IMG/VR virus record: IMGVR_UViG_2721755720_000003
From: a virus
Lineage: Duplodnaviria > Heunggongvirae > Uroviricota > Caudoviricetes
DNA: 50,985 bases
Strand: one strand, 5' to 3'
Shown here piece by piece: positions 21,834-39,037 of the stretch (position 1 is the first letter of the stretch; each line of letters begins with the position of its first letter). The position numbers and the translations under genes are program-made. The notes below the pieces were generated by a model, which was given only the letters and a program-made list of their open reading frames with translations, was not told the origin of the DNA and did no database searches.

Positions 21834-22949
21834 TTAAATCCCTGCTTTTCTGAATACCTGTGCATCACGCTCACGGAGCTGCTTCAGCGTCAGCCATTCG
21901 CCTTTATCGGTGTAAAATTCATCTGGCGACATACCACCATCCCGAATCAGCTTTGCTCGGGTTTCCCCCACAATCTGTTTTTGTCTGGTGTAAGGCTGAC
22001 GCAAAAACCATTCCCTGTAGGTTGTATCTCCGGCCACCACGCCATCCATGCTGGCCCGCTCAGCCGGGGAAATATCGCGAACATCAATACCCAGTTCCTT
22101 CGCTGATTTCAGAATGAACGTTTCCGTTGAGCGGCAGCAGAAATGAATTTTTCCCGGCCCCTGCAAATAAGGCACGCTGTGACCTACAGGTTTATTATTC
22201 AGCGTATATTTGAGGCGATCCCTGATTCGACATTGTGGCGTAGTACGATTATCAAGCGTTGATAACCATTGCTTACCCTTAATCAAATCATTATTCGCGC
22301 TGGCAAAACTCTCACGGGCAGTAGCAGCAAGATGTCCAACCGCTGTTTTTGCAATGCTGGCCGCATTAGCCCGGCTCATCTGCAATGCACCATCCTGAAA
22401 TCCCTTACTGACATGTCCCCGAATTTTTCTTGCGATCTGCTCATTGGTATCCCCCAGCAAAAAACCCTGACGCACTGTATTTGTTATGCGTCTGAGCCGA
22501 TCCGCCTCAAGATCTGAGGCCCACTCACTGAGCAGTCGTCCCTGGAATGGTCGCGCCATTGCAGCGGCATAAAGTGCATCAGGAGAGATACCAACCAGAG
22601 GGTGAACATCAGCAACAAAATCAGGTAGCATAGAATCAAACAGACTTAACTGATAACCAGCCTCATAAATTGCCAGCTCGTTCAGCTCTCCGGAGAGACT
22701 GGTAAACATGCTGTTAATAGCAGTGCGGTTAACCTTTCTGACGCTCGCCAGAAGTGACTCCAGGCGCTTAACGGTAAAATTACCTGGATCGAGGCTGTCC
22801 AGTGCTATCAGCAGGCGAGCAGTAAGTTCCGCATCGCTGTCATTCAGTATTTTCACCATTCTGGCAGCCACGCCAGTGCTATAGCGGGATATCCAGACTG
22901 CATGAGCAATTGATTCATCACGCAGCCGTTCATTCACGGTTTGCATCAT
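21834..22949 (-). CDS. Head morphogenesis protein (SPP1 gp7 / Mu F family minor capsid protein)
   Basis: 371 aa immediately downstream of the portal gene. Confidence 0.75.
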   Translation of the reverse strand: MMQTVNERLRDESIAHAVWISRYSTGVAARMVKILNDSDAELTARLLIALDSLDPGNFTVKRLESLLASVRKVNRTAINSMFTSLSGELNELAIYEAGYQLSLFDSMLPDFVADVHPLVGISPDALYAAAMARPFQGRLLSEWASDLEADRLRRITNTVRQGFLLGDTNEQIARKIRGHVSKGFQDGALQMSRANAASIAKTAVGHLAATARESFASANNDLIKGKQWLSTLDNRTTPQCRIRDRLKYTLNNKPVGHSVPYLQGPGKIHFCCRSTETFILKSAKELGIDVRDISPAERASMDGVVAGDTTYREWFLRQPYTRQKQIVGETRAKLIRDGGMSPDEFYTDKGEWLTLKQLRERDAQVFRKAGI

Positions 22950-24336
22950 TGATTTCCATCAGCATTACACTCTGATTTTTTAATTCATCGATCACTTCCT
23001 CTGGACGGGAATCCTGATCGATAAATTTCAACGCCTGCAACACCCGAACCGCATCAATCTGACGTATATCACCGCCCTGACGCAATGACTGAACAGCCAG
23101 CGCGGAGGATGAGTCAAACACCTGGGCAGATACATCCAGTTCAGTGCGCACATCCACATTGCCACCGCAACTCTCTCCGATCCATTCCGCCATTATCTGG
23201 AGAATATTATCGAGGGCATCTTCGAGGGAGTTCGCCATTGTATAAAGCGGCGAGTTTTCCTGCATTCGCTCTTCATTAGTCTGATCAACAGATTTGGTGG
23301 ATGTATTTTCAGCACGCAGAAGTTTAGCGCCGGCATGACGCATCTGATTTTCCAGCTTCTCAAGTGATGTTTCGCCAGATTCTATCGCTGCGCCACTATG
23401 TTCAACATATTCGAGGCCATTTTTTGTTCTGTCCTCAAAAATCGTAGCGGTGGATGCACCAACCGTCAGTTCTTCATTCCTGTCCAGCCCGTAGGCCACC
23501 AGTAATGGAACGCTGGCAACATGAAGAATATTGTCCTGCTCGCTCTGGCTTTGCCAGTGCTTGATATTCAGCAAGCCAAGATTAAGCAATGGCGGTGTAC
23601 CACGCATAAATCCTGTTTTCTTCGTGTACAGTGTTACCAGAGGAATATCATCACGGCTGGTATTCCATGACTCATGAAGCGTCCAGACAGATTCGCCATT
23701 AGTGCCTTCGCTACGTCGATAAATTTCAACTCGACGGGGCATAATATGGCGGATCTGCTCCACCTTCTTCTGCCCGAAATCATCACCATCAATAATGATG
23801 ACCTCTTTTATACGCAAATCAGTGAGAACAACTTTCCCTTTTTCAACTTTCGATTTCCATCCAATAACCTGGCGTGGATTCAGCATCGTAACGTACGGAC
23901 GACCACCGGTCGCGTTTTCATCGGCTTTTGTCCGAATCTCTTTCATATCCGTTCGTGGATAGTCCACCAGCGCATGTGCCACACCATACTGAAATGCGAG
24001 GCTGAAAAATTGCTGCGCCCACACATCCAGTCGGCTCCCCTCCATGTCGATATTTTCTGCATATTCCCTGATTTTTGCCGGCGTTTCCTCACTCAATACT
24101 GTCGGCTCTGCAAATATGCGCCCAATATTTTGCTTGATGCTTTCTTCATACACAGGAAGTAGCGTAGCCACAGACAGGCGTTTTTTATAAGCGTCTTCAT
24201 CTTCGTTAGGCCATTTTGGGAGATAATTTTCCCCCTGCCTGCGCATTTCAAGCGTACCGCCCATCAGTGCGTCGTTAATATCCCACGCCTCCAGCATATC
24301 GTTATAGTCGAGGTTGGGTGTTGATATATCAGCCAT
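22930..24336 (-). CDS. Portal protein
   Basis: 468 aa; position between terL and the MuF-like gene. Confidence 0.8.
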   Translation of the reverse strand: MADISTPNLDYNDMLEAWDINDALMGGTLEMRRQGENYLPKWPNEDEDAYKKRLSVATLLPVYEESIKQNIGRIFAEPTVLSEETPAKIREYAENIDMEGSRLDVWAQQFFSLAFQYGVAHALVDYPRTDMKEIRTKADENATGGRPYVTMLNPRQVIGWKSKVEKGKVVLTDLRIKEVIIIDGDDFGQKKVEQIRHIMPRRVEIYRRSEGTNGESVWTLHESWNTSRDDIPLVTLYTKKTGFMRGTPPLLNLGLLNIKHWQSQSEQDNILHVASVPLLVAYGLDRNEELTVGASTATIFEDRTKNGLEYVEHSGAAIESGETSLEKLENQMRHAGAKLLRAENTSTKSVDQTNEERMQENSPLYTMANSLEDALDNILQIMAEWIGESCGGNVDVRTELDVSAQVFDSSSALAVQSLRQGGDIRQIDAVRVLQALKFIDQDSRPEEVIDELKNQSVMLMEINDANRE

Positions 24337-24338
24337 AA

Positions 24339-25649
24339 TTAAATCCGAAGTGATGTGACTCTTCCGGTCGGTTTGACAATAGGGAATTGCTTAACGATGA
24401 AATAACCTCCGGCATCATTCGGGTGATCATTGCCAGATTTTTTATCAGGCTCCCCCTTCTCATCCCAGACCTGTTGCTCCAGAGATTCGGCATATAACGG
24501 GCAACGCTTCACATTAACTTTATAGCGACGCTCACCATTGGCATTGCAGAACATTGCATTCATTGAGTTAACGCGATCTTTTACTGGCGGGTTCGAGCTG
24601 TTCACCACAACGTTAAAACCAGCCTGCTTAAGCTGGGCTATATCCGTCGTACTTGCGTTACTTGATTTTCTGGAATCCCCGGAAGCATCTGGATAAATAT
24701 AAATTTCCCTCACTTTCCGGTAATCATTCCCATCATACAGCCAGAAGCGTTCTTTAATGATGCGGATCATATCCGGCGTATCGTAGGCATTGATGATTTC
24801 AGTTACCGCACATGGAAGCCCCAAACGCAGCACATGGACGATTCCCGCCATCTTTCCAACGTTAAAATCCATCCCAATATAAATCGGCTCCCCTGGCTGC
24901 TCCACTTCTTCGCAATTATTCAGTTTCCGGTCAAACTGATGGTAAACAGTACCACTTGTCAGGTTAGTAAACTGTCCTCGAAGATAGGCTTTAATCAGCT
25001 CTGGAGGGTATGATTCAAGAAGCGAAGGAATGTAATCTGCTGGCAGGTTCTTTTCATTATCGAAAGTAGATGCCTGCACCAGACCATACAGTGAGGCCAG
25101 CTCTGTTTTTTCACGCACGGCTTTAACAAACTGCTCGTAGACAAATTTGAATCCTTCCGGCGTGGTTGTAACGTCAATACCGTTGCGAAGTCCATCAATC
25201 TTATAACGCATACGTGCAATTATCTTGCGCCACGCCGTTCTGGCTTTTTCCTTCGGCAAAATGTCCAGTTCATCCACCAACGCATTACCAATTTTGAAAC
25301 CGACGATCGTTTGTGGCTTCTCCATCGATCTGCAGATAGTGGTTCCCCGATACTGGCGTCCGTAATAAAAGTGAACCTCTTTATTTCCCTCATTAATTTT
25401 TACGTTCAATCCCCAGTCAGCAGCAACTTCTTCCACTGTAGGGTAAAAAATATCGCGAATTTGGGGATACGTTGGCGCAAAATATCCCTGATTTATACCT
25501 GGATGCTCCCAAATCCCCTTGCATATGCCGCCACACCCAACCCATGTTTTGCCCGAGCCAAAACCAGCAATATAGGCTTTAAATTTATGGGGCATTGAAA
25601 GAAATCGCGCCTGAGGCACATTAAGCGTCGGAGAGATCATCTTCATCAC
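24339..25649 (-). CDS. terL: Terminase large subunit
   Basis: Walker A GFGSGKT near the N-terminus; C-terminal nuclease-like acidic residues; 436 aa. Confidence 0.9.
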   Translation of the reverse strand: MMKMISPTLNVPQARFLSMPHKFKAYIAGFGSGKTWVGCGGICKGIWEHPGINQGYFAPTYPQIRDIFYPTVEEVAADWGLNVKINEGNKEVHFYYGRQYRGTTICRSMEKPQTIVGFKIGNALVDELDILPKEKARTAWRKIIARMRYKIDGLRNGIDVTTTPEGFKFVYEQFVKAVREKTELASLYGLVQASTFDNEKNLPADYIPSLLESYPPELIKAYLRGQFTNLTSGTVYHQFDRKLNNCEEVEQPGEPIYIGMDFNVGKMAGIVHVLRLGLPCAVTEIINAYDTPDMIRIIKERFWLYDGNDYRKVREIYIYPDASGDSRKSSNASTTDIAQLKQAGFNVVVNSSNPPVKDRVNSMNAMFCNANGERRYKVNVKRCPLYAESLEQQVWDEKGEPDKKSGNDHPNDAGGYFIVKQFPIVKPTGRVTSLRI

Positions 25650-26715
25650 TCCTTACTCTGGCATCAACCACATTAATATTGATCGCCACAGGCTGGGGAT
25701 GTTCATTATCTTCCACCGTTTCGATCTCTTTGCGCAGCTTCTGGTTTTCCATTCTGCGCCGTTCAATTTCCAGTTCCTGTAGCCGTTTATCTGCACATAA
25801 AGCCCCGCCAGCAGAAAACAAACGCAACAATTCACGCCGGGCGGCAGCCTTATCCTCCAGCAGGATCTCAACGCCGAATTTTCCGAATTTTGCCCCTGCA
25901 TATAATTGCCGCGCATCCCCATCAAGCAGAGTGGTATCAGCCATATAAAGCTGTCCCGTTCCCTCACCGCAGCACTTCGGGCAGTCCGGATTGGGTATGG
26001 CGTTATCAACAAAGCCGAGGCCTCCATATTCCGGTTCGGGTTTGCCATCTCTGGAAGCCTGCGCCGCTGCCTTGTCGAATTCTGCTATATCGCGCCACTG
26101 GTAGAGATGATTCTCGCCCCAGCAATAACGGCAGTTAACACGGCGAAATTGTGCAAGCTGATTGGGGTCGGCCAGGACAATAGCCATCAACTGACTCACT
26201 AGTAAATCCAGGTCTGCGGTATAGCGTTTCTGGTACTGATTGCGGAAGTAGCTGATAGCGCGAAAAACCCTGGCATTTCTAAGCATACGACTGGCGTTGC
26301 TGTTAGCTGTCGCACCTTGCCCCTCATAACCGGCTAGTCGGTACGCCTCTGTCGGCTTTTTACCCTGAGCAACAAGCATCGCAAACTTAGCCTGCTGGTC
26401 AGAAATGCCGAATTCATCGGGACAGAACGAAAATTCCTCCGCGTCGCCCTCATTCAGGCCCGCATCGAATACTGGCTTTTTTTCCTGAGATTTTTCGTTC
26501 CGCTTTTGTGCAGTCTGCGCAGATTTTTTCTGCGCACTTTTTTGCGCAGTTTTGCACATTTCTGTCTGCGCATTTTTCGGAGTTTTTTTGATGTAACGAC
26601 GGGCTGTTGCGTAATTCAGTCCCCTTGCTTCACACCATGCCACCGGAGATATACCGGAGCGGGTGTATTCAGCAATATACTCCTGCTGCAACGCCCCCCA
26701 GTCCGGTCTGCTCAT
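25621..26715 (-). CDS. terS: Terminase small subunit (long, PacA-like), N-terminal HTH
   Basis: Directly upstream of terL; N-terminal HTH-like segment; Lys/Gln-rich region encoded by TGCGCA repeats. Confidence 0.6.
   Translation of the reverse strand: MSRPDWGALQQEYIAEYTRSGISPVAWCEARGLNYATARRYIKKTPKNAQTEMCKTAQKSAQKKSAQTAQKRNEKSQEKKPVFDAGLNEGDAEEFSFCPDEFGISDQQAKFAMLVAQGKKPTEAYRLAGYEGQGATANSNASRMLRNARVFRAISYFRNQYQKRYTADLDLLVSQLMAIVLADPNQLAQFRRVNCRYCWGENHLYQWRDIAEFDKAAAQASRDGKPEPEYGGLGFVDNAIPNPDCPKCCGEGTGQLYMADTTLLDGDARQLYAGAKFGKFGVEILLEDKAAARRELLRLFSAGGALCADKRLQELEIERRRMENQKLRKEIETVEDNEHPQPVAININVVDARVRSDEDDLSDA
26506..26575. repeat. Cluster of TGCGCA hexamers each followed by a T-run, inside terS; candidate pac site
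   Basis: TGCGCA at ~26514, 26531, 26543 and 26569, plus TGCACA variants, all within ~70 bp. Confidence 0.4.
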
Positions 26716-26718
26716 CAG

Positions 26719-26970
26719 TTAGTCCTGATTTTTATCCACCCTGAGTAGTTCGCGCAGAGCAAAGGCATCCCCTTTTCTGGCAAGCTTAAACAATGCCGCT
26801 CGTAACTCGGCTTCACCTTTCGCTCTGCCCTTACGGATGGCCGCATAAAAATCTGTCATTGCTTCCCGATTTTCTTTCAGTCGGTTCAGATCAACATCCA
26901 GAACGTCAGCGATTTGTTGTGCAGTCATCCGGCACGCTGCCAGAGACTCGACTTTCGAATACGGAATCAT
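26719..26970 (-). CDS. Small hypothetical protein upstream of terS
   Basis: 83 aa with a GGGGGTGA RBS; stop overlaps the terS start region. Confidence 0.5.
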   Translation of the reverse strand: MIPYSKVESLAACRMTAQQIADVLDVDLNRLKENREAMTDFYAAIRKGRAKGEAELRAALFKLARKGDAFALRELLRVDKNQD

Positions 26971-27838
26971 TTGTCACCCCCATTGATATGCAGGGTGTCT
27001 TCTTCCTGTATTTTTCGTGAAGGATTTTTACTGCAGCGTTGTTCCAGGTGACCTGATGGTGAATGCGTTTATGGCTGGCACCCATCAGTGAGATTTTTAC
27101 GCACGACGGCGCATACATGACGGAGTAAAAACTTTTAACGTAGGTTCCGGAATCCAGATACAGCTCGGTCATTCCGCCGCTGTTTTTCTGCGTCTGTTTC
27201 TGCCCTAACTGGACAGCACCGATCGTCATAAACAATTCACCACAGCGACCGAGATTCGTGTACGTATTCACATCCTCGTTAATGCGCCCCATGAATGAGA
27301 ACGGTCGATCAACCGAACAGATAAAGCTGTTCATTGCCTTGCGTTTCACCCACGAAGCATGGCCGCCATTGTCACCAAGAAAATCCCCGCCCTGCGACAT
27401 AGCGATGGAAAGAGCAGGTATTGATTCGTAGTACGCCAGCATTTCAGAAAGGATCGCATCCAGTTTCCTTATCGGAAAATAGGCCTGGTCATAGTTGCGA
27501 TCCACCCGAAACTGGAACTCGTGATAATCATCATCGAGCTGAATGAAGTATTTACACCCGACCAGTTTTGCCAGGTCGAAACAGGCATTACGGGCGTAAA
27601 AAATTGAGCGGCGGTCACAGAAATTATCGGCTTCGTCAAAACGACTGGCGATATCGGCTTTGGAAAACACCAGCACCTGTTCACCAAATTCAGCCATGTA
27701 CTGATTCCGTGTCTTATCTTCATCATCAACAACGATAAAAATTTTCCCGGTATAGCCAGCACGACGCAACGTCCGGTAAGTCAGAACTTTGTCCGGTCGC
27801 CCGTGAGTCAGAATAAAGGCGCAAAAATCATCACGCAT
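26906..27838 (-). CDS. Putative GT-A-like nucleotide-sugar transferase (DxD motif), function unknown
   Basis: 310 aa; N-terminal beta-strand FILTHGRP…IFIVVDDED and QLDDDY motif; ATG overlaps the ParB-like stop (ATGCGTGA). Confidence 0.45.
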   Translation of the reverse strand: MRDDFCAFILTHGRPDKVLTYRTLRRAGYTGKIFIVVDDEDKTRNQYMAEFGEQVLVFSKADIASRFDEADNFCDRRSIFYARNACFDLAKLVGCKYFIQLDDDYHEFQFRVDRNYDQAYFPIRKLDAILSEMLAYYESIPALSIAMSQGGDFLGDNGGHASWVKRKAMNSFICSVDRPFSFMGRINEDVNTYTNLGRCGELFMTIGAVQLGQKQTQKNSGGMTELYLDSGTYVKSFYSVMYAPSCVKISLMGASHKRIHHQVTWNNAAVKILHEKYRKKTPCISMGVTNDSVFESRVSGSVPDDCTTNR

Positions 27839-28622
27839 ATTCCTCCTCCTCACCACCATGCATGATCTCCACCATGCGCTGCGTCATCCGGACAAATCCA
27901 TTTTCAATAGCCTGCTGATAATCAATGATCACCAGCGCCGACTCCTCGAAAAAACACTGAATTTCAGAGGGGGCGTGAGCGTAATAGTCCGCAATTCTGC
28001 TGAAATTAAACACCGTGTGACGTTCTGCCGCACACAGGAGGAATTTCTCAATATCAGGCTCAAGGGACGCCGAACGTATCCGGCTGATCAGCTCCTGAGT
28101 TTTCGTATCGTCGTACAGTTCACTGATATCCGGTTTACCGCCCGACGGCTCATAAACAGGCGTATCAATTTTCGTCGTATACGGCTCCTCCTCATTTCCT
28201 GTACCGGGCAAAACATCCGTCAACAGTTCATCAATTTCTGTCGGGATGAAGCCTGTCAGGGAGACATCAAAATCAGCATTGATTAGGTCCGACAGCTCCA
28301 TCCGCAACAGATCTTCATCCCAGCCAGCATTCATCGGCAGGCGATTATCTGCCAGGCGGTACGCCTTTTTCTGCTCATCCGTCAGGCCAGACAGAACAAT
28401 GACCGGAACAGAATCCATTTTGAGCATTTCAGCCGCCATAACACGACCGTGACCCGCAATAATTTCGCCCTTTTCGTCAATCAGCACCGGATTAGTCCAG
28501 CCGAATTGCTTAATACTTTCTACCAGTTGTGCCACCTGCTCAGGGCTGTGCGTCCTGGCGTTGTGCGCATACGGTGACAATTCTTGTAATGGGCGATAGA
28601 CTATCTTTAATTTCTCGCTCAT
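27831..28622 (-). CDS. ParB-like nuclease domain protein (ParB/Srx N-terminal domain)
   Basis: 263 aa; N-terminal KIVYRPLQELSPYAHNARTH…IIAGHGRVMAA; I recall K-12 Rac ynaK as a short relative. Confidence 0.8.
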   Translation of the reverse strand: MSEKLKIVYRPLQELSPYAHNARTHSPEQVAQLVESIKQFGWTNPVLIDEKGEIIAGHGRVMAAEMLKMDSVPVIVLSGLTDEQKKAYRLADNRLPMNAGWDEDLLRMELSDLINADFDVSLTGFIPTEIDELLTDVLPGTGNEEEPYTTKIDTPVYEPSGGKPDISELYDDTKTQELISRIRSASLEPDIEKFLLCAAERHTVFNFSRIADYYAHAPSEIQCFFEESALVIIDYQQAIENGFVRMTQRMVEIMHGGEEEEYA

Positions 28623-28759: not shown

Positions 28760-30217
28760 TTAGGAGCGCCAAAAAAAACCTGAAAACAATATAATAACAG
28801 GATAAATTTCAAGGCGACCAAGAATCATAGCTATGCACATTAAACATTTTGCAATGTCATTAAGCACTCCGAATGACGATGCAGTAGCCCCAAAACCTAA
28901 TCCCATATTATTAATACATGCAGCCACTGTTGCAAATGATGTAAGAAAATCATATCCCATACCATTTAACACCAGTATAAAAAACACCGTGAAGAGAGTA
29001 TAAAGAAAAAAGAAACTCCATACAGACCTCATTACACGATCTGTAACTATCTTCCCTCCTACATTTACACTCAACAACGCTCTGGGATGAGAAAGCTGAT
29101 TTATCTCGTGTTTGCTTTGTTTGAAAAGTATAAGAAATCGAAGTGACTTAATTCCACCACAAGTTGAACCTATACATCCCCCAAAGAAACTTGACAACAG
29201 CAAAAACACTATCGTATGCGTGGGCCAACTTGCATAATCCTGCGTAGCTAAACCATTATCAGTGAGCATGGAGCTGGCAAGAAAAAACGAATGAATAAAA
29301 CTTCCATGCAAGTCATACATACCTATATGCCAGACCTGGAAAGAGGTAACAATGATCACCCCTAAGGCTATTAACAGAAAGAAACGAAGTTCAATATCTC
29401 TGATTAAAGGTTTTATCGTTTTCCTGCTAATAACAATATACCAAAGAGTGAAGTTGAAAGCCGATAGCAGGGAAAAAGAACCAGCCACCAGCTCAACCAA
29501 ATAGTTATTAAAATATCCGATACTCTCGCTATGAGTTGAGAAACCACCAAGCGAAACTGTGGAAATCCCGTGACAAATAGCATCAAACAAAGGCATTCCT
29601 GCAAGTCTATAACAGACAATACAAGCAATACCTAATAAAGAATAAGTTATCCACAGTGTCCGTGACGTATCGGCCAGGCGGGGAGTGAGTTTGTCATCCT
29701 TAAATGGCCCCGGCATTTCTGACTGATAAAGCTTTGCACCACCAATACCCAATAATGGCAATACAGCAACCGCCAGAACAATAACTCCTAAACCACCTAT
29801 AAAATTTAACTGTGACCGATAGTACAAATATGCCCGAGGTAATGAACTAACATCATCAATTACAGTTGCTCCTGTTGTTGTTATTCCAGAAACCCCTTCA
29901 AACAGAGCATCAATGAACGTTAAATTAAGTTCTGAGTCAATCCATAAAGGGAATGCACTAATAACAGAAAACAAAATCCAAAACATTACAATTATAATAA
30001 ACCCATCACGGGTACGTAATTGAATGCCAGATTTCTTAGTTGTATACCACGCTCCGCCACCAATGCAAAAAAATATAACGAAAGTTATAAAGAAAACGAA
30101 CAGGCTTTTTTCTTTATAAAACAATGCTACAACCATTGGTGGCAACATTGAAAGACTATAGAGCCAAACCAGGAACCCACACATATGAGTAACAACTCTT
30201 ACATGAGATGTATTCAT
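28760..30217 (-). CDS. trkG: TrkH/TrkG-family K+ uptake membrane protein
   Basis: 485 aa polytopic membrane protein recognised as Rac TrkG; AT-rich codon usage relative to neighbours. Confidence 0.9.
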   Translation of the reverse strand: MNTSHVRVVTHMCGFLVWLYSLSMLPPMVVALFYKEKSLFVFFITFVIFFCIGGGAWYTTKKSGIQLRTRDGFIIIVMFWILFSVISAFPLWIDSELNLTFIDALFEGVSGITTTGATVIDDVSSLPRAYLYYRSQLNFIGGLGVIVLAVAVLPLLGIGGAKLYQSEMPGPFKDDKLTPRLADTSRTLWITYSLLGIACIVCYRLAGMPLFDAICHGISTVSLGGFSTHSESIGYFNNYLVELVAGSFSLLSAFNFTLWYIVISRKTIKPLIRDIELRFFLLIALGVIIVTSFQVWHIGMYDLHGSFIHSFFLASSMLTDNGLATQDYASWPTHTIVFLLLSSFFGGCIGSTCGGIKSLRFLILFKQSKHEINQLSHPRALLSVNVGGKIVTDRVMRSVWSFFFLYTLFTVFFILVLNGMGYDFLTSFATVAACINNMGLGFGATASSFGVLNDIAKCLMCIAMILGRLEIYPVIILFSGFFWRS

Positions 30218-30354
30218 ATCTAAATATTCTTTCAATTATAACCACCTTGCTGCAATATTATGATTATACTGTATAAAATTTAACTCCTCTTAGATCTTAC
30301 TTCACTGTTCCTTATGAAACAATCATCAAAATGAATCATATTGTAGTTAAGATT

Positions 30355-35643: not shown

Positions 35644-37908
35644 TTATACGGAAACTGGCACACGAGCAGGCAATGGATAGTGAGCCCAGTTATTAGCATT
35701 TAAAGCTCTTACGCCATCAGCATAAACTTGTGTGTTTCCATCTAATGATTTTAAAGTTACTACAATAGTTACAGGTAAAGGCTCCATTAAGGCCGGTTCA
35801 TTCGCTCTCAACGTTGTTTTAGCCTGAAGAGCCCAGTTACCCGAAGTAATTCCTTTATTAAATGCCTTGCGATGAATTTTTACTGGTGACCACTTTCCAC
35901 CATGCTCAATTTGAGCTCTCTCATATCCAGATTGACCGTTTTCTCCTTCCATAGGCACTTTTCCTTTTATAGTATTATTCTCAATTAAGCCAAAACTTAG
36001 CTCTACGTTCGCGCGAACATATTCACTGCCGGCATTAGGATTCAGTGGTGGTGCATATGCAGCAGTAATTACAATCTCACCTTTAAATTTTCCATTTTGA
36101 ATAAGTGCCGATGGTATGGGATAGTTTTCCTTTCTCCACCTCATCCCAGGAACCAAGAATGTTTGGAAAATCAGAGTAAACCTATCATCACTATCATATA
36201 AGGTCTCAATAACTTCATTAGGAATTCCCGCTCCCAAATAGCGTCTTTCACTTGGCGAGTAATCAGGAGAAGATAATTGAGCGGAATGAATTAATAATGC
36301 TTTAATCAATGATGGTGAAACATTAAAGTCTGAATTAGTGGCTATTCTCTGCCATGTATGCGCAGCTAAACTTGCCACAATTGGAGCAGCAAAACTAGTA
36401 CCAAAATTAGAGCAAAGCCTATTATCTGGCCCTACGACCTTTAAACTGCTTGCTCCTACATTCCAAGGTCTATGAACCCCACCGCCAGCATGGATTATAT
36501 CTGGCTTTGGAGTAAATACAGGCCCAGGGCCACGACGAGTATATGGTGTCGGTGTTCCAATTTCACTTAAAGCATCATTAGCTTCCATATGAGAAACTGA
36601 ACCAACTGTTAGTGCTCGGACTGACTCTCCAGGAGAGGAAATTAAATCAGCACCTCCAAGCGGTTCAGGATTTGGCCATGTACGTATAGGTTCATCTACA
36701 TAATTACCTGCAGCAACTACAAACAAAATACCAAATTTATCGCTGAGCCGATCTAACTCCATCGCAAAATCACTAAACGTCTGCTCATTACATGGTCCGC
36801 CTCCCAAAGACAAATTCCAGACTTTTATATCTGGTCTTTTATTTACAGCATCTGCTAGCCTCAGAATTAAATCTGATATATAAGATCCATTTTCATCTAA
36901 GGCACAAACATCATGGATTTTAGATTTTGTATCAGGAATCCATGGATGATTGTCATTTAAAAAATGAGCGCCTGATATCAATGAAGACACCATAGTCCCA
37001 TGTTCATAACTCGTATCAGGAGGAATTACGTATGTTTCCCTACTCACTACCCAAGGAGTAATTGTTGCCGCGATGGGGCTTACCCCAGTGTCAAATACAG
37101 CAACAATGGGTAATTCTTCTGATGGTACGGGAAAGCTATTTGTTTCAATGCCAACAGAATCACTTACACTAACCGGGAATGCTGAATATTTTGGTTCTGG
37201 AATTAACGTTCTTATACCCGGGTAATTAATGAGAATGTCTAATATATATCTATCATTTGGGGATAAATCCATTATCCTTAATAAGGGAAGACCACATTTT
37301 TGTCTAATCTCATCATATTTAACTCCGTGTTGTTCTAATATAGAAATAACGTTTTCATAGTTGTTGTAAGTTGCATCTTCACCTGTGTACTCAAATAGTC
37401 GTACAAGGATGTTTGATGATTCAAACAAACCATCAGTGCCTCCTGGAACCTTCCTATTCTCATCCCAAGGTTCAATGCGCTCAATCGCGCTTAGATTAGC
37501 CAAAATCGCTTTAATATTCCGATGTAAAATAACTGACTCTAATACGTCAAAACAGCCGGCATGAGCAGCAACCAACATTTCATCTATTTTGGCATGACCG
37601 GCATTTTGCAATCCAGCCTCTTGAGCAATTTTGTTCGGCCTATGCGTTTTGGCTATTCCCTGGTCTCTTAATTTGAAAACCAAAGTACCCAAGCTTCCAG
37701 GGTACTCTGAAAGTTTGGATTCTAAATAATGTTTACTGGTTGTTAAATTTCTTACTAGCCCTTGTCTATATTCGGCTGTTACATCAACCAATACCTTTGC
37801 CCCACCGCCAGCGTTTACTATTGCACCCAAGTCACTACTGGAAAAAGGGATTCTTAACATTGGGTTTGTAACTTTTGCGTTACTAAACTGTGTACCCCTT
37901 CTGCTCAT
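35644..37908 (-). CDS. Subtilisin-like S8 serine peptidase (IetS-like)
   Basis: 754 aa; catalytic triad motifs VAVFDTGV (Asp), HGTMVSS (His), GTSFAAPIVAS (Ser); overlaps the upstream ATPase gene. Confidence 0.85.
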   Translation of the reverse strand: MSRRGTQFSNAKVTNPMLRIPFSSSDLGAIVNAGGGAKVLVDVTAEYRQGLVRNLTTSKHYLESKLSEYPGSLGTLVFKLRDQGIAKTHRPNKIAQEAGLQNAGHAKIDEMLVAAHAGCFDVLESVILHRNIKAILANLSAIERIEPWDENRKVPGGTDGLFESSNILVRLFEYTGEDATYNNYENVISILEQHGVKYDEIRQKCGLPLLRIMDLSPNDRYILDILINYPGIRTLIPEPKYSAFPVSVSDSVGIETNSFPVPSEELPIVAVFDTGVSPIAATITPWVVSRETYVIPPDTSYEHGTMVSSLISGAHFLNDNHPWIPDTKSKIHDVCALDENGSYISDLILRLADAVNKRPDIKVWNLSLGGGPCNEQTFSDFAMELDRLSDKFGILFVVAAGNYVDEPIRTWPNPEPLGGADLISSPGESVRALTVGSVSHMEANDALSEIGTPTPYTRRGPGPVFTPKPDIIHAGGGVHRPWNVGASSLKVVGPDNRLCSNFGTSFAAPIVASLAAHTWQRIATNSDFNVSPSLIKALLIHSAQLSSPDYSPSERRYLGAGIPNEVIETLYDSDDRFTLIFQTFLVPGMRWRKENYPIPSALIQNGKFKGEIVITAAYAPPLNPNAGSEYVRANVELSFGLIENNTIKGKVPMEGENGQSGYERAQIEHGGKWSPVKIHRKAFNKGITSGNWALQAKTTLRANEPALMEPLPVTIVVTLKSLDGNTQVYADGVRALNANNWAHYPLPARVPVSV

Positions 37909-39037
37909 ATGCTCCTGACTCCTTCAGAATGTTTGAAATTACTCTTGATGTAAGTTTGTACAAATTAGCAAGAACTCTGATAGAAAATAATTTTTTATCT
38001 TTAGAACGTAACCAACGAATTTCATCTTCGTAAGTGCTTAAATTTACACCTTCCATAAGCGATTGAGCAAGATACAAACGCCTATACAATTTATGGTGAT
38101 TTATCACACTTGCACCTTCAATAACTGCATCCCTACGTGCATCCAAGCTCACCTGTTCAATTATTGCTCCGGATAATCCTTCCGATTTTCTTGATAAATC
38201 ACTTAAATCTAGATCGCTACATATCATATTCTTTAAACGATTTTTCCAAATTAACTCTCTCTGATGTATGTCAGGCAGAGGCATTGGAATTCTGAAGCTA
38301 AATCGCCTCCAGATTGCAGGATCCAGAAGTTGCTCATGGTTAGTTGAGGCAATAATTACCGTATCCTCTGATGCCGCATCCATATTCTGCAATAGTGAAA
38401 TGACAACTCGCTGAAGCTCACCTATATCTCTCTCATTACCTCTTGCTCCAGCTAAAGCATCAAATTCGTCTAAAAAAAGCACTGATGGCCTCTGCATTAC
38501 ATAATCGAAAACCTGTCTAAGATTTTTGCTGGTTTGTCCCAATAAACTACTAATCAAAGTATCGCAACGCACTGTAAGAAGTGGAAAATCTAAGCGGGTA
38601 GCGATGTACTTAGATAACATAGTCTTACCTGTTCCTGGCTTTCCATACACGAGCATACGACTCGGCAATGCTGCATCAGCTTTAACAAACTCATCATAAC
38701 GTTGAACATTAGTGATAAACTCTTCAACACGGGTACTGATTGCTGCAGGCAGAAAAATCTCTGAACTGTCTAATTTAGGATAACTGACATCAACAGTGTT
38801 GAGTCGACTATCAATATCTACCGGTAATGAGCCCAGAGATATCCCACCTCCAGCCCTTTGAGCTCCTGCCAACGCCTGGGGAGCTCTAAGCAACCTTTCT
38901 CTTATCATTCTGGCTTGCTTGACCTCCCCTTTTTGTTCGAGCTTATCTGCCAGCAACCCAGCATAATTACTAGCCATCGAAGCATTTGCCTTTGTTGCAC
39001 CTTCAATGATTTTTAACACTTCTGATAAATAATCCAT
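37883..39037 (-). CDS. AAA+ ATPase (classic clade; IetA-like)
   Basis: 384 aa; Walker A GKPGTGKT, Walker B VLFLDEFD, sensor-1 ASTNH, Arg finger region PAIWRRF; GGGAG RBS. Confidence 0.85.
   Translation of the reverse strand: MDYLSEVLKIIEGATKANASMASNYAGLLADKLEQKGEVKQARMIRERLLRAPQALAGAQRAGGGISLGSLPVDIDSRLNTVDVSYPKLDSSEIFLPAAISTRVEEFITNVQRYDEFVKADAALPSRMLVYGKPGTGKTMLSKYIATRLDFPLLTVRCDTLISSLLGQTSKNLRQVFDYVMQRPSVLFLDEFDALAGARGNERDIGELQRVVISLLQNMDAASEDTVIIASTNHEQLLDPAIWRRFSFRIPMPLPDIHQRELIWKNRLKNMICSDLDLSDLSRKSEGLSGAIIEQVSLDARRDAVIEGASVINHHKLYRRLYLAQSLMEGVNLSTYEDEIRWLRSKDKKLFSIRVLANLYKLTSRVISNILKESGAYEQKGYTV

Follow-up and report, generated by a model that had tools for sequence, protein, structure and literature searches.

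The 50,985-nucleotide (nt) IMG/VR virus record IMGVR_UViG_2721755720_000003 (Caudoviricetes), which in its full length we call the window, consists essentially of a single lambdoid prophage of the Rac type. Its small terminase gene, terS, lies on the minus strand at 25621-26715, encodes a protein of 364 amino acids (aa), and contains a tight array of the palindrome TGCGCA whose conservation and probable role in DNA packaging are our subject here. The product, TerS, matched the Pfam family Terminase_2 (PF03592) over aa 122-321 with 34.5 bits (gathering cut-off 26.1) and PHROG 51, 'terminase small subunit', with an E-value of 1.7e-75. From its N-terminus, the protein consists of a helix-turn-helix (HTH) resembling that of PacA, the small terminase of phage P1 (aa 1-44; coding sequence (CDS) nt 1-132, 26584-26715), a Lys/Gln/Ala-rich low-complexity linker (aa 45-98, 26422-26583), and the Terminase_2 body with a four-cysteine (Cys4) insertion. 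The extent of the HTH was supported by a profile match and predicted helices, while the linker is predicted to be disordered and carries both the array and a poly-A run. The insertion in the body (25969-26133, aa 195-249) contains four invariant cysteines (CRYC ... CPKCC) and suggests a zinc ribbon, in a region where AlphaFold confidence is low. On the same strand, terL (24339-25649; 436 aa, Terminase_6N/6C) overlaps the end of terS and is followed by genes for a portal protein (22930-24336; domain match to DUF4055) and a MuF-like head morphogenesis protein (21834-22949; Phage_Mu_F, E = 1.3e-8).

The AlphaFold2 (AF2) model of TerS had a mean predicted local distance difference test score (pLDDT) of 49 and was usable for aa 1-43 and 99-165 only. 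Within the first of these segments, helices at residues 6-20, 24-30, and 35-42 (pLDDT 68-77) formed an HTH-type arrangement, with R39, R40, and Y41 included in the predicted recognition helix (residues 35-42). The next stretch, aa 44-94, had a pLDDT below 50 and is predicted to be disordered, and aa 99-165 (pLDDT 61-87) form the start of the Terminase_2 body. Since the HTH directly precedes the disordered stretch in this model, the hexamers are predicted to sit in a disordered linker just 3' of the HTH region. A profile search of the PDB returned no solved structure below an E-value of 0.5 for the N-terminal HTH.

The array occupies 26507-26572, equivalent to CDS nt 144-209 and to aa 48-69 (KNAQTEMCKTAQKSAQKKSAQTAQK), and comprises six hexamer positions that we numbered H1 to H6 by CDS coordinate. 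Exact copies of TGCGCA are present at H1 (26567-26572, CDS 144), H3 (26543-26548, CDS 168), H4 (26531-26536, CDS 180), and H5 (26516-26521, CDS 195). The remaining two are one-base variants: H2 (26553-26558, CDS 158) reads TGCACA on the plus strand, and H6 (26507-26512, CDS 204) reads TGTGCA on the plus strand, equal to TGCACA on the coding strand. An earlier inspection made without database searches (the sequence-only reading) had reported four TGCGCA copies and two TGCACA variants in about 70 bp of terS, each copy followed by a T-run, along with a 364-aa TerS, a 436-aa TerL, and a MuF-type gene. These positions and gene calls were confirmed, with the four exact copies falling within 57 bp and all six positions within 66 bp. 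The plus strand of 26500-26580 reads ...tgtgcagtcTGCGCAgattttttcTGCGCActtttttGCGCAgttttgcacatttctgtcTGCGCAtttttcgg..., and the T-rich run after each hexamer on this strand corresponds to the A-rich Lys and Gln codons of the minus-strand gene.

The abundance of TGCGCA in the whole window (23 copies) was at the level expected by chance (21 ± 5), so only its clustering is unusual. At most 2 copies per 60 bp were observed in 300 composition-preserving block shuffles, as compared to 4 in the window. Tandem Repeats Finder identified periods of 12 and 15 nt in the array, and the commonest codon reading of its hexamers was xxT-GCG-CAR. A direct repeat (GGCTTTTTACCCTGAG / GGCTTTTTTTCCTGAG) is also present 3' of the array in gene orientation, at 26354-26369 and 26474-26489, with its copies 120 bp apart, and may have arisen by chance.

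We used the N-terminal 44 aa of TerS as a query against one-genome-per-species bacterial assemblies and fetched 55 loci with 59-100% HTH identity to the window, drawn from Shigella, Scandinavium, Serratia, Lelliottia, Citrobacter, Enterobacter, Kluyvera, Pantoea, Raoultella, Xenorhabdus, Pectobacterium, and others. Conservation was tested with 39 intact homologues (38 distinct sequences), which were selected by protein similarity and represented 30+ Enterobacterales genera; in the 38 distinct intact genes, the HTH ends in ...ARR(Y/H)IK. The 38 distinct genes contained 181 copies of TGCGCA at CDS nt 121-210, against a flank background of 0.14 per kb. Arrays had a mean of 4.8 hexamers, versus 0.47 expected from synonymous resampling with the genes' own codon usage, and the observed count was reached by any of 1000 resamples in only 2 of the 39 sequences. 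The sequence-only reading had proposed, as a check on its claim, to see whether related terS genes retain the hexamers while their synonymous sites drift, and this check gave a strongly positive result.

Codon choice within the linker was similarly constrained. Alanine was encoded by GCG in 138 of 144 linker Ala-Gln pairs, as compared to 28% elsewhere in these genes, and the codon before the pair ended in T in 142 of 144 cases, with the encoded residue being T, S, A, N, P, I, G, D, or C. Hexamers occurred in all three reading frames across relatives (143/35/10), in which they encode AQ, [LMV]R[KNT], and CA. For sequences picked to have a common register, third-position entropy was 0.16 bits within hexamers, while the conserved HTH and the linker spacers had values of 0.79 and 0.70, respectively. 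When window-type TerS genes from E. coli, Scandinavium, Serratia, and Pseudescherichia were aligned, all six hexamer positions were kept while the spacers and peptide diverged, and the linker outside of the hexamers was hypervariable. The window array differs from its relatives by single transitions at CDS 158 and 204, each of the six positions is perfect in some relatives, and two relatives (L008 and L015) have TGCGCA at all six. These comparisons indicate that selection acts on the nucleotide sequence of the array, and the AQ-rich linker peptide is probably a by-product of this DNA-level selection.

Two E. coli alleles showed changes in or beside the array. The terS of strain AST215 (L003, 742-1824) is missing one 12-bp repeat unit with one hexamer relative to the window, such that array copy number differs among otherwise 96% identical alleles. 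In strain ETEC1747 (L005, 744-1834), terS is annotated as frameshifted, with the shift located in the poly-A run (A7-A8; about 26475-26485 in the window) just 3' of the hexamer array. This run is likely a slippage hot spot.

Having established that the hexamers are kept among relatives, we compared them across different terminase contexts. The same HTH was found on TerS bodies of 223-377 aa belonging to PHROGs 51, 370, 32222, 2606, and 1711, and these bodies pair with different TerL types, such as a PBSX-type TerL at locus L010. A TGCGCA array was present on every HTH-bearing body type examined. Conversely, pPE4 (L002) encodes a window-type TerS body, with 93% nucleotide identity over the matched 591 nt, but has an unrelated HTH_50-like N-terminus; it contains no TGCGCA, and the equivalent place is occupied by about six repeats of GGAAAC/GTTTCC. 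In a reverse test, we chose IMG/VR loci only for having three closely spaced TGCGCA copies and found the HTH within 450 nt in 73 of 120 cases. Two further loci were interrupted at stored-chunk edges, bringing the count to at least 75 of 120. The sequence comparisons thus indicate that the array follows the N-terminal HTH and not the TerS body.

Some records in this set deserve separate mention. The pPE4 record (PP818812, 'Actinobacillus phage vB_Apl-pPE4') shares its gene order and coordinates from terS to the head genes with the E. coli phage Rac-SA53 (L001), within the stretch fetched, and its stated Actinobacillus host looks doubtful. In two LT-II enterotoxin prophages, Rac-SA53 itself (KU052037; 3794-4822) and one in E. 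coli STEC719 (L009; 745-1773), terS is a deletion fusion annotated as 'gpOterS; fusion of two genes by deletion'. These fusions have lost the N-terminal HTH and only two TGCGCA are left. If the HTH reads the array, both phages should be impaired in specific packaging.

The repeat also changed with the type of HTH. Residue 39 lies within the predicted third helix of the AF2 model, and its identity was associated with the hexamer across all loci analysed. Helices with the motif ARR[YH] (R39; about 118 distinct) were accompanied by an average of 5-6 TGCGCA and about 0 TGCGAA, whereas those with AKR[YH] (K39; 16 distinct, including Yersinia and Pasteurella phages) were accompanied by 5-8 TGCGAA/TTCGCA and about 0 TGCGCA. 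Relative to ARRYIKK, the AKRYIK(I/V/K) subgroup has TGCGAA(T) repeats plus the 12-bp palindrome TGCGAATTCGCA at the equivalent place. For example, Yersinia phage vB_YenM_29.18 combines an AKR-type helix with TGCGAA repeats, and Pasteurella phage Pmp11, also with an AKR-type helix, has CTGCGAA nine times, spread over two reading frames. TGCGCA is carried both by Vibrio phage douglas 12A4 (ARRYIKL) and by Klebsiella phage 5 LV-2017 (ARRYIKK). Several of the loci in this comparison were ascertained via the motif itself; among those ascertained by protein, the correspondence of R39 and K39 with the repeat was identical and had no exception. A reverse scan with three copies of TGCGAA recovered the HTH at only 5 of 120 loci, so this pattern is not specific. 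All five had K39, and the other loci were unrelated tandem repeats, many of them in giant-virus bins.

We next considered the relationship to phage P1, in which pac, the site where packaging begins, is 161 bp within pacA and contains seven TGATCA/G hexamers (HEX4 and HEX3) with Dam sites (PMC10028697). Synonymous mutation of the P1 hexamers cuts genome packaging about nine-fold, and processing of pac is Dam-dependent (PMC10028697). In the P1 record, where pacA spans 90529-91722, we located TGATC(A/G) at CDS 194, 201, 213, and 228 (nt 194-233) and at CDS 324, 336, and 347 (nt 324-352). These two clusters, whose hexamers are also in mixed reading frames, flank the cleavage sites (pac cleavage is annotated at CDS nt 276-285), and the record includes an integration host factor (IHF) site. 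The HTH family profile matched the PacA N-terminus with an hhalign probability of 91% (E = 1.1e-6) across 39 colinear columns, aligning W3...NLNPNTARRYLRA41 of PacA with W6...GLNYATARRYIKK44 of the family. Pairwise blastp between the window HTH and PacA gave a weak match (E = 0.045).

The P1 precedent that had been invoked for the window is more than an analogy, in that the N-terminal HTH of TerS is homologous to that of PacA at the profile level and the hexamers are at the equivalent position. The small-terminase genes of both phages contain palindromic TGnnCA hexamers, beginning a few dozen nt past the 3' side of the HTH region, which occur in mixed reading frames and are iterated at least four times within tens of bp; in the window family they are kept at the DNA level. 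TGATCA, TGCGCA, and TGCGAA have the outer bases TG..(C/A)A in common. Relatives with TerS bodies of about 330 and 240 aa have 5-6 hexamers followed by 2-3 TGCGCA located 150-200 bp downstream, a bipartite array that resembles HEX4/HEX3. The two systems differ in that the window hexamer is TGCGCA and not TGATCA/G, and the absence of GATC from the window array (count of zero) leaves no counterpart to the Dam-methylation switch of P1. Moreover, the TerS body is a Terminase_2 domain that has no relationship to the remainder of PacA, the large subunit is of the Terminase_6 type and not PacB, and the phage is a Rac-like lambdoid siphovirus prophage as opposed to a P1-like plasmid prophage.

DNA-level selection on the array, its association with the HTH, the change of repeat with HTH type, and profile homology to PacA are all supported by comparison. 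Given these results, we consider it probable that the TGCGCA array is the DNA recognition element for TerS in the pac site of this prophage. The pac site proposed by the sequence-only reading thereby gains comparative support as a candidate recognition site, which would be of the P1 hexamer-array type with a different hexamer, no methylation site, one cluster in the window, and a different terminase body. Physical binding, cleavage position, and packaging direction we infer as follows. TerS would have at its N-terminus an additional HTH of three helices (aa 1-44), a homologue of that of PacA, and the linker codons for aa 48-69 would be written so that the DNA holds about six target hexamers of that HTH. 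On phage DNA that is concatemeric or has been replicated in situ, several HTHs of a TerS oligomer could then bind the array, and bound TerS would recruit TerL, the presumed nuclease and motor, to make a first cut near the array. Headful packaging would proceed from terS through terL to the portal gene, which is leftward in window coordinates. With the binding domain and its target adjacent in a block of roughly 200 bp, the two would be able to move together between unrelated TerS bodies as a specificity cassette.

The P1 cut falls between its two hexamer clusters, and the cut position of a single-cluster form is not predictable from sequence. Two IMG/VR loci (L244 and L258) start at the array, but only through stored-chunk edges inside longer contigs, and we rejected their ends as termini. 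Headful packaging would fit the gene content of the window, where a TerL of the Terminase_6 type, a MuF-like protein, and a coat protein similar to that of P22 constitute indirect evidence. The window TerL is 40-51% identical to the TerL of Jerseyvirus, Kagunavirus, and Dhillonvirus siphoviruses, which have been described as headful packagers.

We infer pac function solely from homology and comparative genomics, and a number of observations weigh against assigning the array to pac recognition. The architecture of P1 is only partly reproduced, as the window array is a single cluster of four perfect and two degenerate hexamers with no IHF consensus. Only 4 of the 6 hexamers are perfect in the window copy, and no second hexamer cluster was found in the window terS, where there are only scattered one-mismatch copies. 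The IHF consensus WATCAANNNNTTR was not found near the array, and its two matches in the window are both distant and at chance level. TerS also has the usual Terminase_2 HTH (aa ~99-165), which may be an alternative DNA-contacting domain. Helix 3 of PacA likewise reads A-R-R-Y, yet the P1 hexamer is TGATCA, implying that residue 39 cannot by itself make up the recognition code. Only about 20 nt separate codon 39 from the repeats, and K39 forms are scattered among R39 forms on a tree of residues 1-35. Part of the R39/K39 covariation may hence reflect physical linkage in a recombining block as opposed to independent co-evolution. We set aside the independence of the R39/K39 switch as an argument, given that 35 residues and tight linkage cannot separate repeated evolution from block recombination. 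Lastly, a 121-nt segment of the window containing the array folds as RNA at -30.8 kcal/mol (z = -3.69), above random.

Of the other explanations, the one that fares best is that the array is a site at which the HTH or another protein acts in regulation, such as autorepression of terS/terL transcription or translation, with the true pac located elsewhere. It is difficult to separate from pac recognition in so far as the evidence for a protein-DNA module would be just as compatible with any other function of the bound complex, and the window copy is without the second cluster and IHF site of P1. We regard it as unlikely in view of the homologous P1 elements being the pac site itself and the bipartite arrays in relatives mirroring HEX4/HEX3. 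In addition, pac/cos recognition is the known role of TerS DNA-binding domains (PMC9611059), and we found no further repeated element when terS and its vicinity were searched.

An RNA-level role, in which self-complementary UGCGCA copies pair into terS mRNA hairpins that tune translation or stability, would account for the stable fold of the window segment and for the z-scores of about -3 that we obtained with other TGCGCA-type arrays. Such stability is automatic for any repeated palindrome, however, and the non-palindromic TGCGAA direct repeats of the K39 type are kept at the equivalent place with no excess stability (z = -0.04 for L150 and -0.6 for L149). The common hexamer spacing of 7 nt leaves a 1-nt loop, which cannot form a hairpin. 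Together with the tracking of the repeat type with a DNA-binding helix and the P1 homologue acting as DNA through Dam-dependent processing (PMC10028697), these results make an RNA-level role very unlikely. Finally, that the array is an incidental by-product of a slippage-prone (T/S)AQK peptide repeat, with no DNA-level selection, would agree with its 12/15-nt tandem periodicity, its varying copy number (the 12-bp unit gone in L003), and the predicted disorder of the linker, but we reject this Lys/Gln/Ala-repeat alternative as highly improbable on the grounds that the hexamers span three frames with unrelated dipeptides, their synonymous positions are nearly invariant (GCG and preceding-T counts above) while the linker peptide and spacers diverge, they exceed the peptide-plus-codon expectation ten-fold across genera, the motif is swapped for another when the HTH changes, and 59-82% HTH identity and different TerS bodies exclude the relatives being recent copies of one sequence.

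Recognition of the array by the PacA-like HTH would have partial parallels in other headful phages. In P22, one asymmetric sequence of about 22 bp midway through gene 3 serves as pac, whereas the window element consists of 6-bp palindromes arrayed close to the 5' end of terS. As with P22 (PMC11260489) and Sf6, the window site would reside inside terS, so that recognition protein and target are inherited together, and packaging would be headful. The TerS families and DNA-binding domains of P22 and Sf6 are unrelated to the PacA-like HTH. In SPP1, whose TerS (G1P) has a body from the same Pfam family, Terminase_2, the pacL and pacR boxes have different sequences, straddle the start of gene 1, and are bound by the Terminase_2 HTH, whereas it is an additional N-terminal HTH that correlates with the repeats in the window family. 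The SPP1 pac is recognised through several short repeated boxes wrapped by oligomeric TerS (PMC4737164), and the window site similarly consists of multiple short repeats.

Shiga toxin (Stx)-converting phages (Traversvirus/Sepvirinae) encode a related TerS N-terminal HTH, with about 40% identity, followed immediately by an array of 12-bp period inside the gene. Their array differs in having four [TC]GATCAT repeats, which include a Dam site as in P1, and then two TGCGCA, and their helix 3 reads ARTRIKM. In Stx phage vB_EcoP_phi296 (L147, PV189400), the four [TC]GATCAT repeats are found at 1330-1400 and encode (I/T)DHE/K; this record is linearised inside terS. By sequence, the Stx-phage arrays bridge the TGATCA and TGCGCA motif types, and their [TC]GATCAT array is a candidate methylation-sensitive pac.

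Of 5426 complete E. coli genomes, 913 contained the terS linker region, and the protein collection contained 1829 close relatives of TerS. Members of the wider HTH family are likewise present in phages of Klebsiella, Yersinia, Vibrio, and Pasteurella, as well as in Stx-converting phages. Pac sites have been experimentally defined for a handful of phages (P1, P22, SPP1, Sf6, and few others) and are unpredictable for most prophages. The array represents a sequence-readable pac candidate for a widespread E. coli prophage family, and through the comparative pattern, what had been an isolated paradigm in P1 becomes a rule that is predictable and can be tested directly. The underlying principle is textbook knowledge, as both pac inside terS and the hexamer arrays of P1 were already known. 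We found no description of TGCGCA/TGCGAA arrays in connection with pac or terminase, or of a PacA-like HTH cassette on a lambdoid Terminase_2, although this is weak evidence since most subscription journals were outside the search. Our literature search returned nothing on the pac of Stx/933W, on virion sequencing or terminase biochemistry for this family, or on the vB_EcoS prophage records, which stem from a computational prophage survey, and neither the ES18/P22 paper nor a gut-virome paper had data on this family.

If the array is indeed the TerS recognition element, the P1 pac paradigm would be linked to lambdoid prophages, and natural HTH/hexamer pairs would become available for studying DNA reading by oligomeric TerS. 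The start and direction of lateral transduction would be predictable, which in this prophage would be leftward through the structural genes into flanking host DNA. Short cassettes might also be used to build phagemids or transducing particles of chosen specificity. We are evenly divided on a broader proposal, that there is a large undescribed superfamily of portable pac-specificity cassettes, each joining a PacA-like HTH with its own hexamer array in a block of about 200 bp, that extends over Enterobacterales, Vibrio, Pasteurellaceae, Stx phages, and P1 pac. Its members would follow a readable code (R39 with TGCGCA, K39 with TGCGAA, and P1/Stx variants with TGATCA-like hexamers) from which pac sites, as well as host pseudo-pac sites where generalized or lateral transduction would begin, could be predicted by sequence for the E. 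coli prophage family counted above.

Downstream of terS, the same strand also encodes a P22-type coat protein and tail genes. The region upstream of terS contains a lysis cassette and a trkG-like gene, together with genes for a TET-associated glycosyltransferase (TAGT) and a ParB_N protein. Directly upstream of terS, an 83-aa open reading frame (26719-26970, minus strand) aligned with the central part of PHROG 309, 'terminase small subunit' (E = 8e-23); at this place, RefSeq relatives annotate a shorter hypothetical protein of 69 aa. We considered this frame as a hexamer binder, which is unlikely because it is missing from L010, a locus that has both the HTH and the array. The TAGT gene (PF20691) overlaps the ParB_N-domain gene at 26906-28622 (minus strand), between the lysis genes and terS, and is labelled 'GREB1-related' in RefSeq relatives. 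PADLOC showed the ParB_N protein to resemble the N-terminus of type II methyltransferases, and the two genes may form a DNA-modification module. As in the Rac prophage, the trkG-like K+ transporter gene (TrkH family, E = 5e-145; 28760-30235, minus strand) is a moron situated between the genes for lysis and those for packaging. Two adjacent minus-strand genes at 35644-39037 matched the IetAS anti-phage defence system in PADLOC, comprising the subtilase IetS (754 aa, E = 8.7e-302) and the AAA ATPase IetA (384 aa, E = 8.9e-143), and the prophage thus carries a defence cassette.

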